Assembly (NCBI GenBank): GCA_963662795.1
Contig: OY759746.1
Span: forward strand, 2,432,001-2,496,000
Direction of reading: 5' to 3'
Source: Spirochaetia bacterium
Lineage (GTDB): Bacteria; Spirochaetota; Spirochaetia; CADAEX01
Length of the DNA: 64,000 nt
The position numbers and the translations under genes were made by a program. Below, one piece after another: positions 48,739 to 54,145 of this stretch. Within the stretch, counting starts at the first letter, position 1. Each line of letters opens with the position of its first letter. The notes below the pieces were generated by a model that saw nothing but the letters and a program-made list of their open reading frames with translations, was not told where the DNA came from and searched no databases.

Positions 48739-49319
48739 TGAAAACTAATCAAAAATCACTTTCCTGGTCAACCAGAGATACTGTTGTAGTGGCTATATCC
48801 TCTGTTGTTTTCGGTGTATGTTATCTTGCCTGGGTTCAGATTTGGCTACTTGCCCAGGGCCTTATCGGTCCACTGGCAATGGATATCGTATTTGGATTCT
48901 GGTTTGCGGGATCAACCTTCACTGCTTATGTAGTTCGTAAACCCTGGGTTGCGTTTGCTACTGCAATTCTTGCTGTAGTCGCTGAGATCTTCTCAGGTAA
49001 CGCGGCAGGGGCAATTCTTCTTTTAACAGGTTTTATTCAGGGACTCGGCTCAGAGATGCCTTTTCTGTCTACACGCTGGAGACGTTATGGATGGCCTGTT
49101 CTACTTTTTTCTGGTGTCAGTGCAGCGTTGTTCAGTTTTGTTTATAACTGGGTGCGCTTTGATTATGAGAGTCTAAAGCCTGGGCTGCTTATAACCATGT
49201 TCAGTATCCGGATTTTAAGTGGCATGATACTGGGAGCAGTACTGCCGAAGATCGTTGCTGATCGATTGCTTAAAACTGGGGTATTAGATGGTTTGGCCAT
49301 CGAAACCGATGGTAAATAA
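48738..49319 (+). CDS. ykoE: YkoE-type thiamine ECF S-component
   Basis: WSTRD, G.WF, RKP, QGLGSE; hydrophobic. Confidence 0.85.
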   Translation: MKTNQKSLSWSTRDTVVVAISSVVFGVCYLAWVQIWLLAQGLIGPLAMDIVFGFWFAGSTFTAYVVRKPWVAFATAILAVVAEIFSGNAAGAILLLTGFIQGLGSEMPFLSTRWRRYGWPVLLFSGVSAALFSFVYNWVRFDYESLKPGLLITMFSIRILSGMILGAVLPKIVADRLLKTGVLDGLAIETDGK

Positions 49320-51591
49320 ATACGGAGATTCAGGAATATATAATTTGCCGGAGATCATCCCCGATGACATTGTCGAAGAAGTATTCCCTGCAGTCTCTGC
49401 GCGGGCGCTTTCAATAGGATATCCACGTTCCGTTTCTTGCGCTGTCAATGCCGCAGATTTTAGTATTCCGCGCGGAGGAGTCTGCTGGTTACTCGGACAC
49501 AATGGTTCCGGCAAGAGTTCTCTGGGACTTGCCTTAGCAGGCATGCTTCCGGGGATTGTTCCCGGCATCCGGAAGGGGTATTTGCGGGTTCATGGCCGTG
49601 ATCCGGCCATGCTGACGCCCCTCGAACGTATTGAACTAAGCGGATTTATTCTTCAGGATCCTTCATCACAACTTTGTACTCTGACTGTAGAAAGTGAGAT
49701 TGCTCTGCTTTTAGAAAATAAAAATGAATGTCGAGAGGAAATATCACGACGTACTTCTCTGATTTTGGATCAGTTTGGTATTTCGCACCTTGCGAATCGG
49801 GATATTCTAACCCTGAGTGGTGGCGAAAAACAACTTGTTGCCCTGGCTTCTACTGCACTTGCACCTCCTCAAGTACTAGTCCTCGACGAACCCTGCGCTT
49901 ATCTTGACGACAGAAATCGGAAGTTAGTTCTCCAGATAGTGTCTCGCATGAAGAATGAGATTCCCGGCATGACTTTGATTATAATTGAGCACCGAACCGA
50001 TGGACTGCCTGCTTCTGATTGCATCCTGTTGTTAAATAGTGAAGGGAAAGTAACCTCCGTAAATGAATCCGTGGAATGGGATAGGGATTTCCCCACCATA
50101 TCCGGCAGAAAAACAGATGGAAATCCAGTTGTGCTTCGGATAACTGATCTCCATTTCCGTTATTCCGGGAAGCCTTATTTGCCGTTGCTCCTGAATGGAC
50201 TTAACCTGACTGTTCACCGCGGGGAGATTACGGTATTAAAAGGGATAAACGGTAGCGGTAAATCAACACTATTGCACCTGATAGCAGGCGCACTTTGTGA
50301 GCGGGTTAAGTCTGGTCTCAAAGCAGAATCAGGCACAATAGAGTTTATTCCTTCAGCAGATCAGGATATCCATGAGACGCCAATTATGCTTGTCCCTCAG
50401 AATCCGGAACACCTATTTATAAGCAGTTCAGTTCAAGCTGAACTCTTTACAGCCTGCAAGGGAAATGAAGAGACAATATGTGAGGTTATGAAACGGTTTG
50501 ATCTTATGGAACTTAATGACAGAAATCCCTATACGCTGTCCACCGGGCAGAAGCGGCGGCTTAATTTGGCGGTGGCTTCTGTGATTCCAGCACAGATAGT
50601 TCTCATGGATGAGCCTACCTTCGGCCTGGATAGCCCGGGGGTATGCGAACTTATCCGGTTAATGGAACAGTTACGAGACCAAGGGAAAACCTTGTTGGTA
50701 GCAACTCACGATGACAGTTTTTCCCGTGCGGTAGCCGATACTATCTTAATACTTGATCGGGGGGTTCTCAGAAATAAAGAAGATAGTGTTGAAATGGATG
50801 AATCGGGGTCAAAGGGATTGGAAACCGGTACAGGAAAAAAAGGTATCACGGCATGCCGGAGCCCGTTTTCCCGGTTGAACCCCCTGGCTCGGGGAGCAGG
50901 AGTCATGATTTTTATTCTTGGAGTGAGTTTTAGCGGATCTCTTCAAATTACGCTGAGCTGGCTTGTTCCGGGGCTTCTATCGGCGCTTTGCTTTACATCT
51001 CTGCATCCTTCGGTATTACTACGCAAAATGTTCCCATTCGCTTTGATCGGGGCCGGATTTTTATGGGCAAACTTGCTTTTTCATCGTAACGGCGGTTTTG
51101 CTGACGGTTTTACCATCGGATTATTACTTTTTTTTCGCTCCCTGGTGTTCGGTGTCTTTTCTCTGCTTTTTGTTCAGGACATGGATCCTGAGGAGTTTGC
51201 GCACTCCCTGCTGCACTATCTCAAAGTCCCTCCTAAATTAGTTTACTCAACACTGATCGCCTTTCGGCTCGGACCGGAATTGAAATCCGAACTGAGTACT
51301 ATTCGTTTTGCTGTGGACCTGAGGGAGATCAATGTTAACAAGCGAAGGATATTAAACAAAATAGGCCGTACTTTTCATATATTTTTCGCAGTGTTTGTCT
51401 CAGCTTTTCGCAGGGCTGGTAGGATCGCAGTTGCCCTTGAAGGTCGGGGGCTCGACAACGGACCTCGCAGTATGCGCTCTGTTCCGGCATTCTCATGGAT
51501 GGACATTATGTTTCTGGTAGTTTGTATTCTGCTGTTTACGGCACCTCTGATTGTGCTGGGTACAAATATCTGGCAGGGTGGGTATTTTTAA
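49309..51591 (+). CDS. Fused ECF double ATPase plus T-component (YkoD-YkoC fusion)
   Basis: Two Walker A sites (GHNGSGKS, GINGSGKST), LSGGEKQ and LSTGQKRR, two DEP; C-terminal TMs with ALEGRG. Confidence 0.85.
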   Translation: MVNKYGDSGIYNLPEIIPDDIVEEVFPAVSARALSIGYPRSVSCAVNAADFSIPRGGVCWLLGHNGSGKSSLGLALAGMLPGIVPGIRKGYLRVHGRDPAMLTPLERIELSGFILQDPSSQLCTLTVESEIALLLENKNECREEISRRTSLILDQFGISHLANRDILTLSGGEKQLVALASTALAPPQVLVLDEPCAYLDDRNRKLVLQIVSRMKNEIPGMTLIIIEHRTDGLPASDCILLLNSEGKVTSVNESVEWDRDFPTISGRKTDGNPVVLRITDLHFRYSGKPYLPLLLNGLNLTVHRGEITVLKGINGSGKSTLLHLIAGALCERVKSGLKAESGTIEFIPSADQDIHETPIMLVPQNPEHLFISSSVQAELFTACKGNEETICEVMKRFDLMELNDRNPYTLSTGQKRRLNLAVASVIPAQIVLMDEPTFGLDSPGVCELIRLMEQLRDQGKTLLVATHDDSFSRAVADTILILDRGVLRNKEDSVEMDESGSKGLETGTGKKGITACRSPFSRLNPLARGAGVMIFILGVSFSGSLQITLSWLVPGLLSALCFTSLHPSVLLRKMFPFALIGAGFLWANLLFHRNGGFADGFTIGLLLFFRSLVFGVFSLLFVQDMDPEEFAHSLLHYLKVPPKLVYSTLIAFRLGPELKSELSTIRFAVDLREINVNKRRILNKIGRTFHIFFAVFVSAFRRAGRIAVALEGRGLDNGPRSMRSVPAFSWMDIMFLVVCILLFTAPLIVLGTNIWQGGYF

Positions 51592-51777
51592 ACATTTTTT
51601 TAAAATAAATTCGTGGTGCCTGAATTATTCAGTCATTTTCTTTAACCCGGAAAATGAGATTCTGACTCATCTTTTGGAAAATGATTTTCTTCAAGGGGAT
51701 CTAAGAAGTAAGAAGAAGATTTTCTCTGGAGGGGAGGGAGGACCCAAGGCTGAATTTCTTCTGTTTATTACCTCGTT

Positions 51778-52224
51778 TTAAGTATCTATCCTTTCTAATT
51801 CCTCTAAAGAAATTACTTTATCTCTATACACTAAATCTCTTCTTTCTTTAAAACCCAATTTGTCCCAAAAATTATTTCCATTATCATTATTCCTGAATAC
51901 TACAAAAGCTATCTTATTTATTCCTTCTTCTCTAAGTGCATTAATAGATCTATCGACTAAGGCTTTTCCAATTCCATTATATCTTTTTTCCTGCTTTACT
52001 GCTGTATGATGAATATACCCCCTTCTTCCATCATGGCCACTTAAAATAACACCTACAATTTCCCCATTTTCTTTTGCTGTGAAACAAGTCGTAGGATTTC
52101 GCCTTAAATATTTATCAATTCCTGCTTTTGAATCATCAAGTGCGTTCAACCCCATCCCAGGAGTATTTATCCATAAATTATATACATTTTCGTAATCTGC
52201 TATTGTCATTTCTACAATTTCCAT
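51778..52224 (-). CDS. GNAT acetyltransferase
   Basis: GHDGRRGYIHHTAV, R..GIG..L, N..GNNFW..LGF. Confidence 0.9.
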   Translation of the reverse strand: MEIVEMTIADYENVYNLWINTPGMGLNALDDSKAGIDKYLRRNPTTCFTAKENGEIVGVILSGHDGRRGYIHHTAVKQEKRYNGIGKALVDRSINALREEGINKIAFVVFRNNDNGNNFWDKLGFKERRDLVYRDKVISLEELERIDT

Positions 52225-52474
52225 TTTTATATTTTCCTTCTTCTCTACTATTACCTATACAGTCATGGCTATTTGATCTCTCTAATTCTTTTATTTTTTA
52301 TATTATTGCATATCCTCTCCCATTAATCGGAGCCCAGGCGCTTATTTTTGAAGCGAAAACAGTCTGTAAAACTTCTTAATCTTATAATCCTACATCAGGA
52401 TGGGGGATAAGGAAAGGAGAATTCTTAATGCCATGTGAGAATTGGAAATGAAGTATAGTTAAGTAATTTTTTCA

Positions 52475-52503
52475 TTGACAAATTACCGATAAAAATTAAT
52501 AAT
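52475..52503 (+). promoter_or_regulatory. sigma70-like promoter TTGACA-N17-AATAAT
   Basis: Consensus match upstream of the leader ORF. Confidence 0.65.
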
Positions 52504-52533
52504 AAACTATTCTAAATTTTCAGGAGGTCGTTA

Positions 52534-52581
52534 ATGTCTATTTTTGTAATTAAGGATGCTCCTGTTTTTGTCAGAATGTAA
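52534..52581 (+). CDS. Leader peptide MSIFVIKDAPVFVRM (ErmCL-like SIFVI)
   Basis: AGGAGGT RBS; 15 codons; overlaps attenuator segment 1. Confidence 0.75.
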   Translation: MSIFVIKDAPVFVRM

Positions 52582-52673
52582 AAAAATCCTATTATTTTTT
52601 GGTAATTTTTATTTTCTTAACATTACAGGACATCCAATCTCTTTTCCATTACGTCCGTAAGTTTTACGGTTTT
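52554..52673 (+). promoter_or_regulatory. Attenuator with mutually exclusive 1:2, 2:3 and 3:4 helices
   Basis: GGATGCTCCTGT/ACAGGACATCC; TTACAGGAC/GTCCGTAA; CCGTAA-GTT-TTACGG followed by TTTT. Confidence 0.7.
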
Positions 52674-52692
52674 ATCAACTCGGGAGAAGAGT

Positions 52693-53082
52693 ATGCACAA
52701 AAAATATATAAATACTATAAATACAAATGAAAATAATGCATTTATCTGCGAACATTGTGGAAGTGTTGTAACTGCTACCTTAAACGGGACATCAAACCGT
52801 AATCATTGTCCTCATTGCCTAAGAAGCTGTCATGCAGATATTTGCATTGGAGACCGCCGCTCATGGTGTAGAGGTATTATGGATCCAATTGGTATTTGGG
52901 TAAAATCAAATAATGAATGGGCATTAATTCATCGTTGCAGGAAGTGTGGAATTTTACGTACAAACAGAATCGCAGGTGATGATAATGAAGAATTACTTTT
53001 TGCACTAGCCGCGGTTCCTTTAACATCAATGCCATTTCCAGCTAATCATATTTTAGGAGAAAAAATTAATGCAAAAAAATAA
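52693..53082 (+). CDS. RNHCP domain protein
   Basis: FICEHCG...RNHCPHCL.S.H.D...GDR...C.G.M.PI, HRCRKCG, NRIAGDDN. Confidence 0.93.
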   Translation: MHKKYINTINTNENNAFICEHCGSVVTATLNGTSNRNHCPHCLRSCHADICIGDRRSWCRGIMDPIGIWVKSNNEWALIHRCRKCGILRTNRIAGDDNEELLFALAAVPLTSMPFPANHILGEKINAKK

Positions 53083-53109
53083 AAATATTTTAAATTGATT
53101 TTTATATTT

Positions 53110-53140
53110 TCGACTCCTTTCTCTTAAGGAGTCGATTTTT
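53110..53140 (+). terminator. Intrinsic terminator
   Basis: TCGACTCCTT/AAGGAGTCGA followed by TTTTT. Confidence 0.85.
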
Positions 53141-53289
53141 ATTTTTGTATCTGGTGAAAAGCTAATTATAAAATATCCACACATGCAAGGGTATATGGGA
53201 AAGGGATTTTGTTGTTGAAAGAAGAAAGAAGGGCTGCCAGTGTTAGTAGGTTCTGCAGGTGTAAAAGCTAACTAAGTATTATTTATAAG

Positions 53290-53751
53290 TTAGATGTTGA
53301 TCTCTCTATTATTATACTCAGAATGATCTTTTATTGCAGCTAAGTAATGCTTTTCCATTAACTCTGAAGATATCAAATAATCTGCTGTTGCTCTATTACT
53401 CGCTGTCGGGATATTATATAGAACTGCTATTCTTAAAAGCGCTTTCACATCTACATCATGTGGTTGGGGCTGCATTGGATCCCAGAAGAATATTAGTACG
53501 TCTATTTTTTCATCTGCTATCATTGCTCCAAGTTGCTGATCACCACCTATAGGTCCAGATTTTAATAAGATTATATTATGTTTTAAAGGATGATTTTCGT
53601 CTATTCTTTCATTTAAAGCTTCCTGTACTAATTTTCCTGTTGTTCCGGTACAGACAAGCTGATGGTTTAAAAGGATTTTCCAATTCCATTTAACCCATTC
53701 TACCATGTCTTTTTTTAAATTATCGTGTGCTACAAGTGCAATATGTTTCAT
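53290..53751 (-). CDS. mgsA: Methylglyoxal synthase
   Basis: IALVAHD, TGTTG, SGPIGGDQQ, DP..QPHDVDVKALLR. Confidence 0.97.
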   Translation of the reverse strand: MKHIALVAHDNLKKDMVEWVKWNWKILLNHQLVCTGTTGKLVQEALNERIDENHPLKHNIILLKSGPIGGDQQLGAMIADEKIDVLIFFWDPMQPQPHDVDVKALLRIAVLYNIPTASNRATADYLISSELMEKHYLAAIKDHSEYNNREINI

Positions 53752-54145
53752 TACATATAAGATACTAGAAATAATAAAATAAGTACATGATTTGTTTTAT
53801 ATTAATAATTAGCATTATTCTAAATCTGTGAAAAGCAGGTTTTTCTTCTAATGGTATATCACAAGAAATACCTAAAATCGTGATACTTTCATATAAAAGG
53901 ATTAAAAGTAATATATTCATTGCATTTATGGCATTTATAGTATCTCATTTTATAGCCTTAAAAATTATTCTTTGCTCGTCGGTCGGAATTCTATGTGATT
54001 ATTACTTCCCAACAGTAAGCTCCTCCGCAATCAGCTCCAATAATTTTATAGTACACCCACTCAAACGCGCAGAGAAGCGGTTTTTCCTCTTTGCCAGGGG
54101 TGGGGGGAGGTGAAGGCAGAGCCAAGGATGGACTTTCAAATATAA

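Follow-up and report, generated by a model that had tools for sequence, protein, structure and literature searches.

Among described regulators, the leaders of the erm(C)/erm(T) attenuators and of msrD are closest to the element reported here. The motif IFVI is the stall site in the leader peptide erm(T)L, according to the available part of one report (PMC11721399), and the MsrDL hexapeptide stalls at termination with erythromycin, residues 3 and 4 being critical, according to the accessible section of another (bioRxiv 10.1101/2021.11.29.470318). A parallel on the side of the regulated genes comes from Streptomyces coelicolor, for which excerpts of a third paper describe an RsgA/EngC paralog activated by WblC and by tetracycline (PMC7157823). 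Here we describe a leader in front of a gene for an RNHCP domain (PF12647) in a 64,000-nucleotide stretch of a Spirochaetia bacterium genome (GCA_963662795.1, contig OY759746.1, positions 2,432,001 to 2,496,000). This whole stretch is called the window, and coordinates given without a locus label are positions in it. We consider it probable that the leader senses ribosome arrest and that it belongs to a conserved family heading a module of RNHCP and a second RsgA GTPase, here termed RsgA2.

The RNHCP unit of the window lies on the forward strand and starts with a sigma-70-type promoter (52475-52503) consisting of TTGACA (52475-52480), a 17-nt spacer and AATAAT (52498-52503), which matches the consensus at 11 of 12 positions. 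By sequence reading, a Shine-Dalgarno sequence AGGAGG (52522-52527) is located 6 nt ahead of the ATG at 52534 that opens an upstream open reading frame (uORF) of 15 codons plus stop (52534-52581; MSIFVIKDAPVFVRM). Comparison with relatives places the family motif in its codons 1-5 (52534-52548). From codon 7 onwards the uORF contains segment 1 (52554-52565), which forms the 5' strand of the base of a helix, P1, in the minimum-energy fold and in the covariation analysis. The 3' strand is segment 2 (52625-52635; ACAGGACATCC), of which the block GAACAGGACATC is kept in relatives. Further downstream, TCTCTTTTCC at 52638-52647 contains a predicted anti-Shine-Dalgarno sequence CTCTTTTCC (52639-52647) that would mask the ribosome-binding site of RNHCP by pairing with 52683-52691. 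It is followed by a weak terminator-like hairpin, CCGTAA/TTACGG, that is specific to the window (52655-52675; CCGTAAGTTTTACGG at 52655-52669, then TTTTAT; -4.9 kcal/mol). The Shine-Dalgarno sequence and ATG of RNHCP (GGAGAAGAG; 52683-52695, also by sequence reading), the gene itself (52693-53082, 129 aa, PF12647 E = 2.5e-33) and an intrinsic terminator with a 10-bp stem, 5 G-C pairs and a T-tract (53110-53135; 53110-53145 in its wider delimitation) complete the unit. The promoter, strong ribosome-binding site, 15-codon uORF, helix between segments 1 and 2, RNHCP gene and terminator are thus all found where a first-pass annotation, made from the window alone, had placed them.

In the minimum-energy fold of 52510-52700, segment 1 is paired with segment 2, and CUCUUUUCC with the Shine-Dalgarno sequence of RNHCP. 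This fold has an energy of -41.6 kcal/mol (z = -3.08), and an equally good fold was obtained in 1 of 200 shuffles. The strongest argument that the leader is not a chance structure is that the uORF, its ribosome-binding site and the helix between segments 1 and 2 are kept in relatives. An Rfam covariance-model scan of 51500-54000 gave no match at E <= 1, and a scan of 10 related loci gave only three sub-threshold matches, none inside the leaders. These matches (L001 2875-2985 and 3068-3152; L022 1870-1970) are all located 3' of the RNHCP coding ranges used for the comparison (L001 1471-1863; L022 1519-1872).

To compare upstream regions, we assembled RNHCP loci from species-representative genomes (50 loci), from relatives, where PF12647 was present in 17 of 61, and from the phylum as a whole, where it was present in 53 of 401 and 40 were fetched. 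uORFs were detected by rule, with an ATG start, a length of 5-22 codons and, in most scripts, a required Shine-Dalgarno sequence. The first-pass annotation had taken the short frame for a leader peptide, and the comparison supports this with 57 distinct related uORF sequences, located ahead of RNHCP in Spirochaetota and in two Maridesulfovibrio genomes, and ahead of a second gene in this genome. Of the first 65 loci (L001-L065), 28 have a family uORF before RNHCP, as do eleven more loci of the phylum, and in one genus (g125) a uORF of the form M-[L/F]-x-L-A-I-V-stop is present in 21/21 fetched genomes. The motif shared by the 57 sequences is M-[L/S]-x-[L/F/I]-[V/A] at residues 1-5, which reads MSIFV in the window. 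At position 2, L occurs in 32 sequences and S in 15; the residues at position 4 include L (25), F (15) and I (12), together 52/57, and those at position 5 include V (28) and A (26). Positions were counted from the ATG, except for the 9-codon uORFs of L076 and L081, which were aligned on their I-V and I-A pairs. A GGAGG-type Shine-Dalgarno sequence is found at the same spacing in most leaders outside g125.

Synonymous codons vary at the conserved positions, with TCA, TCG, TCT and TCC used for Ser, and GTA (11), GTT (10), GTG (6) and GTC (1) for Val, a pattern expected of selection on the peptide. The shortest members indicate which part of the frame is constrained in this way. In the 6-codon uORFs of L031 (MTAIVR-stop) and L059 (MVAIVL-stop) segment 1 falls after the stop, and in the 6-7-codon forms generally, including the 7-codon uORF of g125, the helix strand is located on or after the stop codon. 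It follows that only the first five to seven residues are constrained as peptide, and that the second half of the longer uORFs (KDAPVF in the window) is constrained as RNA. Judged from this conservation, the uORF is a real leader peptide. The 12-mer GATGYTCCTGTT occurs at twenty more sites in two related genomes, none with a segment-2-like match. Most of these sites are inside long open frames (12 of the 20 in frames of at least 169 aa), and none was taken as a leader.

The pairing of segment 1 with segment 2, also proposed in the first-pass annotation, is backed by compensatory changes across clades. For this analysis, we used a MAFFT alignment of 32 leaders, made from sequence only and trimmed, and tested a P1 base of 13 pairs. 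In this alignment 79.2% of the cells pair; shifting the partner by 1-3 columns lowers this to 35.6-47.0%. Changes on both sides were observed in 10 of the 13 pairs, and the observed pairing was reached by 0/500 shuffles. The covariation score was 0.240 versus 0.195, and was reached by 3/500 shuffles. Since several rows are visibly misaligned, the pairing figures are conservative. Individual clades pair GGATGTTCCTGTTC with GAACAGGACATC, GGCGCTTCTGTTC with GAACAGACGCGTC, GGTGGTCC with GGACCACC, and TAGACCGCC with GGCGGTCTA. An RNAalifold consensus of six high-GC leaders contained compensatory changes in 17 of 49 pairs, and the mean energy with which a leader's downstream region binds segment 1 was -21.9 kcal/mol for its own segment 1 and -17.4 kcal/mol for swapped ones (n = 34). 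The g125 leader contains two mutually exclusive helices, TAGACCGCC/GGCGGTCTA and GCCAAAACGGTG/CACTGTTTTGGT, as well as three GTTTTG repeats.

Across the family leaders compared, the start of segment 1 is fixed at codon 6.0-7.7. The helix thus begins just 3' of the conserved N-terminal residues, so that a ribosome held at about codon 5-7 would cover segment 1, as had been anticipated for the window. Taken together, the alignments show a conserved uORF, a covarying P1 and a fixed register between peptide and helix.

The genes next to RNHCP point to a connection with the ribosome, as RNHCP normally forms an operon or a fusion with a paralog of RsgA, a 30S-assembly GTPase. Among 12 open reading frames scanned directly 3' of RNHCP, 9 encode RsgA_GTPase domains (PF03193, E 1e-37 to 1e-51); the others are L031, with a frame problem that a later tblastn search resolved, and L034 and L042, with other genes. 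The order is reversed in L062, L064, L065 and L083, where RsgA is located upstream. Using tblastn, we found that 34 of 65 loci have an RsgA-like gene adjoining RNHCP on its strand; in 5 of the remaining 31 the sequence ends less than 320 bases downstream of RNHCP. When only leader-bearing loci with sufficient sequence on that side are counted, the fraction is 24 of 25, the exception being the window. The two genes are also adjacent in 5/5 further genomes, 4 of which hold a shorter RsgA elsewhere. Moreover, PF12647 and PF03193 occur together in 26 of 28 longer homologs of the window protein in a large protein collection, and in the three fusion sequences inspected RsgA is N-terminal and RNHCP C-terminal. 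Where rsgA2 precedes RNHCP, a uORF with helix is found before rsgA2 too (L062, L064, L065, L067).

RsgA is encoded twice in this genome. The two genes, 372 aa and 314 aa long, are 31% identical and both score above the TIGR00157 cut-off. The longer one (L108:578-1693, minus strand; PF03193 E = 6.6e-48; TIGR00157 161.5 bits against a cut-off of 100) is located 1.9 Mb from RNHCP. When the entire genome was scanned by rule for uORFs resembling the family, 35 candidates were returned, and the sole convincing one precedes the gene for this 372-aa RsgA_GTPase paralog (G000:C1:582529, minus strand). It has a promoter, TTGACT-17-AATAAT, a Shine-Dalgarno sequence, the peptide MSVFVRGMGF and a P1 that differs from that of the window and is self-complementary. 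The presence of a leader copy before both RNHCP and the RsgA paralog indicates that the operon was split here and that each half kept a leader. Two other candidates of the scan fall in a CRISPR array and were discarded as false matches. The array is located at G000:C1 ~2,331,700-2,332,250 on the minus strand, has the repeat GTTTCAATCCACGCTCCCGCGTGGGGAGCGAC and contains two adjacent spacers that are identical.

These operons and fusions strongly reinforce the link between RNHCP and the ribosome that the first-pass annotation had drawn. Gene order and domain composition link RNHCP, as a free-standing or fused partner, to a second RsgA GTPase and so point to the 30S subunit, and the most likely role of RNHCP is to act, jointly with RsgA2, on or with the small subunit of the ribosome. 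A complex prediction for RsgA2 and RNHCP returned a score of 0.01 and "no answer", which is no evidence either way. Other arrangements were observed as well. In a Saccharibacteria locus the gene right after RNHCP (L034:1802-2869, plus strand) encodes a CobW/HypB/UreG-type GTPase (PF02492, PF07683), not RsgA, and is another GTPase partner for the Cys-rich protein. In Ruminococcaceae and relatives (L020-L024, L030, L049) RNHCP has no RsgA neighbour and is located behind a carboxylase gene. The upstream stretch of these loci is different and conserved, and a script found no plausible in-frame start in four of them. A 618-aa protein (P0028) combines the RNHCP domain with major-facilitator domains (PF07690, PF05977, PF13347) instead of RsgA.

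The RNHCP protein of the window matches PF12647 at residues 15-102 (114.3 bits, cut-off 24). An AlphaFold2 model from 45 aligned sequences (pLDDT 84.1) has short N-terminal strands followed by three longer strands and two C-terminal helices, and the alignment contains invariant Cys and His residues in the N-terminal part. We read this as a predicted zinc-ribbon-like part with putative metal sites, joined to a small barrel. When the RNHCP profile was searched against PDB sequences, the lowest E was 0.084. Foldseek gave no PDB match at E <= 0.001 (best E 0.18), and the top VIA-align score was Z = 3.3, for small barrels of the chromo/SH3-like type. Since these structure matches are weak, no fold was assigned.

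How the leader relates to the described systems can now be stated. As in the erm(C)/erm(T) attenuators, a short uORF with a strong ribosome-binding site carries a hydrophobic motif, IFVI in the window, just 5' of a helix strand, and in the window a ribosome held at the motif would block pairing of segments 1 and 2. Unlike in those attenuators, the motif of the family is M-[L/S]-x-[L/F/I]-[V/A] at residues 1-5 and not IFVI, there is no conserved 3:4 sequestering hairpin or terminator, and the leader stands before RNHCP and an RsgA paralog rather than before an Erm rRNA methyltransferase or a known resistance gene. The likeness to MsrDL, as far as the accessible section of that source describes it, is in the very short hydrophobic peptide and in the product of msrD, a factor acting on the ribosome. 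In addition, the 6-7-codon uORFs of L031, L059 and g125 (21/21) end just before or at the helix strand, as expected if the ribosome is held at termination. In contrast to MsrDL, the window uORF has 15 codons and its stop is not at the sensing site, the sequences are unrelated and no ABC-F gene is present; and whereas MsrDL obstructs a Rho-independent terminator, again according to that section, terminator-like sites are found in only 4/33 RNHCP leaders. The S. coelicolor case, in the excerpts available, shares a second RsgA copy beside the housekeeping copy, induced there under translation stress; control there is by a transcription factor, whereas here a cis-acting leader is located directly before the genes. 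The leader works like the erm and msrD leader-peptide sensors and belongs to neither family, membership being rejected because those defining features that were open to test were not found. We rate it as a leader-peptide regulator of a known sort in front of an uncharacterised ribosome-linked module.

The mechanism that we propose starts from a strongly initiated uORF, which would be translated into the short nascent peptide M-[L/S]-x-[L/F/I]-[V/A]. If a ribosome were held so that its P site is at about codon 5-7, it would cover segment 1; in the 6-7-codon relatives the holding point would be at the stop or within two codons of it. With segment 1 covered, the long hairpin P1 could not form, the rest of the leader would refold, and the refolded leader would alter how much RNHCP and, from its own locus, how much RsgA2 is made. 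Arrest as the signal is inferred. As to its sign, induction is the likelier effect, favoured by analogy with the known sensors and with the Streptomyces paralog, and repression by occupancy has a substantial, lesser chance of being correct. A ribosome-targeting drug is a possible cause of the arrest, to which we give about one chance in three; it gains weight because short macrolide sensors of the MsrDL type, the erm stall site IFVI and a tetracycline- and WblC-activated RsgA paralog exist. Otherwise the arrest would be intrinsic or physiological, caused for example by defective or immature subunits and possibly relieved by the module itself.

Several observations weigh against this interpretation. 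Because the search was restricted to ATG starts, the invariance of the start codon is partly by construction, and family membership was defined by a loose peptide pattern plus the helix, with the leaders of L009 and L014 doubtful. No Shine-Dalgarno sequence is visible before the uORF in g125. An alignment of these leaders (L087-L107) contains a conserved TTGAC box ending ~31 nt before the uORF ATG, and this distance together with the missing Shine-Dalgarno sequence suggests that the uORF mRNA may be leaderless in this genus. The leader sequences are related, so that the shuffles overstate significance and the covariation counts do not represent independent events. The remaining points concern the sign of the response. 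For these, the uORF bases +3 to +34 were forced to be single-stranded and the unpaired probability of the RNHCP start region was recorded, with 0.05 as the threshold for a change. Among 28 leaders the probability went up in 5, down in 7 and stayed within 0.05 in 16, which gives no consistent direction. In the window it did not move (0.43 to 0.43), and masking of segment 1 thus leaves the start of RNHCP no more open than before. For L005, L055, L056 and L060, the folds predict that segment 2, once freed, pairs with the start codon of RNHCP. Of 33 leaders, 10 have their most stable partner for the start region in segment 2, 19 elsewhere in P1 and 4 behind segment 2, the window being one of these 4. 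Pairing of segment 2 with the start region fits repression by arrest as well as induction.

The alternative that draws most on these observations is that ribosomes translating the uORF or pausing on it keep P1 open, and that its freed 3' strand then blocks the starts of RNHCP and RsgA2. A shortage of functional 30S or 70S particles would leave the uORF empty, P1 would close, the starts would be cleared and the 30S-maturation module would be made. Such a homeostatic loop suits a controlled gene that is a paralog of a 30S-assembly GTPase, and it agrees with the four leaders in which segment 2 reaches the start codon, with the location of the best partner inside P1 in 29/33 leaders and with the excess of falls over rises by more than 0.05 in the masking test. 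P1 spans most of each leader, however, so that the location of the best partner is weak evidence and 29/33 is near the chance expectation. The complementarities are only 5-7 bp long and their registers differ, and the start-site mask of the window is outside P1 and independent of it. Occupancy by itself would also leave the conservation of a particular N-terminal pentapeptide unexplained, and the short-leader sensors known to us are inducers. We consider this alternative unlikely, at about one chance in four.

An ErmC-like macrolide attenuator, as the first-pass annotation had suggested for the window, is less likely still. According to this reading the ribosome stalls in the presence of erythromycin at the last Ile of IFVI, segment 2 pairs with a segment 3 to form an antiterminator, the 3:4 hairpin and the mask are lost and RNHCP is induced. 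IFVI is indeed present at residues 3-6 of the window uORF and is the stall motif of an erm leader (PMC11721399, available part), the helix between segments 1 and 2 is real, and short hydrophobic macrolide-sensing leaders such as MsrDL exist. The motif is found in none of the other 56 distinct uORFs, and since the family motif differs from it, the likeness to ErmCL is best seen as a family-level resemblance and not as homology. A literature search with a five-letter resistance-peptide motif returned nothing relevant. ErmCL, in addition, stalls with a longer nascent chain, and the regulated genes, an RsgA paralog and its partner domain, are not erm-like.

The output step of that reading fares no better in the window. 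The mask, nine pairs between CTCTTTTCC and 52683-52691 (-9.3 kcal/mol), offers the start region of the window its strongest predicted pairing. It persists in folds with segment 1 masked or removed and is not conserved as such. The 3:4 hairpin with its U-tract is likewise present where it had been placed. Terminator-like sites, by the criteria of the scan tool, occur in only 4/33 leaders, however, and close to the gene in the window alone; none was found in the leader of L056 or in the leader before the RsgA paralog of this genome, and P1 has no U-tract behind it. The output step is thus not exerted via a conserved intrinsic terminator. The antiterminator, which like the hairpin is specific to the window, loses at equilibrium by 5.8 kcal/mol: without segment 1 the best fold of the window leader (-15.8 kcal/mol) keeps both the mask (-9.3) and the hairpin (-4.9), whereas the best fold containing the 2:3 helix (itself -5.4 kcal/mol) reaches -10.0 kcal/mol, and the mask stays. 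The 2:3 helix forms earlier than the hairpin and has nearly the same stability, so that it could win kinetically, and in the window such a competition could add some attenuation.

Classical amino-acid attenuation, in which Ile, Val, Leu and Phe codons would sense a shortage of branched-chain aminoacyl-tRNA, is very improbable: positions 4-5 are hydrophobic in most uORFs (L/F/I, then V/A) and a whiB7 uORF is reported to respond to alanine starvation, according to excerpts of that study (PMC10274678), but unlike in the trp, his, leu and ilv attenuators there are no tandem runs of one codon and no conserved terminator, I, F, L, V and A alternate at each position, and the downstream genes are not biosynthetic. 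Equally improbable is an RNA-only element, a riboswitch or protein-binding leader with an incidental and untranslated uORF, which would agree with the conservation of P1 and other blocks as RNA and with the g125 leaders, and against which stand the Shine-Dalgarno sequence at fixed spacing and ATG in most clades, the amino-acid classes kept through synonymous codon changes, a frame open up to or past the helix in every member, the shared MS[I/V]FV of two leaders in one genome that differ in their helix sequences, and the lack of an Rfam family match.

Two neighbouring genes in the window may be mentioned. A gene for a GNAT acetyltransferase (51778-52224, minus strand) is located just upstream of the RNHCP leader in divergent orientation, and a GNAT gene is also found upstream in a g125 genome (L088:3-437, plus strand, same strand as RNHCP, ~385 nt upstream). 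This may represent a conserved neighbourhood or chance. Further upstream, a 767-aa open reading frame (49288-51591, plus strand), known from its translation alone, contains two ATPase motifs of the Walker type (GxxGxGKS) and, behind them, a C-terminal part that is hydrophobic and membrane-like, and is richer in GC than the RNHCP region.

Our literature search, which did not extend to subscription journals, found no paper on RNHCP, PF12647 or a leader before an RsgA paralog. The RNHCP domain, a domain without described function, thereby gains a concrete context as the partner of a second RsgA GTPase and, through it, of the 30S subunit. The conserved leader peptide is only five to seven residues long, and because it keeps a fixed register with the helix, the stall site can be predicted. 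A drug as trigger would make the leader a new inducible response to translation inhibitors, with a logic comparable to that of the attenuator-controlled ABC-F factor MsrD; a physiological trigger would make it a feedback loop on ribosome maturation. Tentatively, the five to seven residues might form a new class of arrest sensor for drug-bound or defective ribosomes, inducing an RsgA-paralog/RNHCP module that repairs, splits or protects small subunits. If this were true, sensor and repair module together would constitute an unrecognised inducible system of ribosome protection across Spirochaetota, present also in Maridesulfovibrio.

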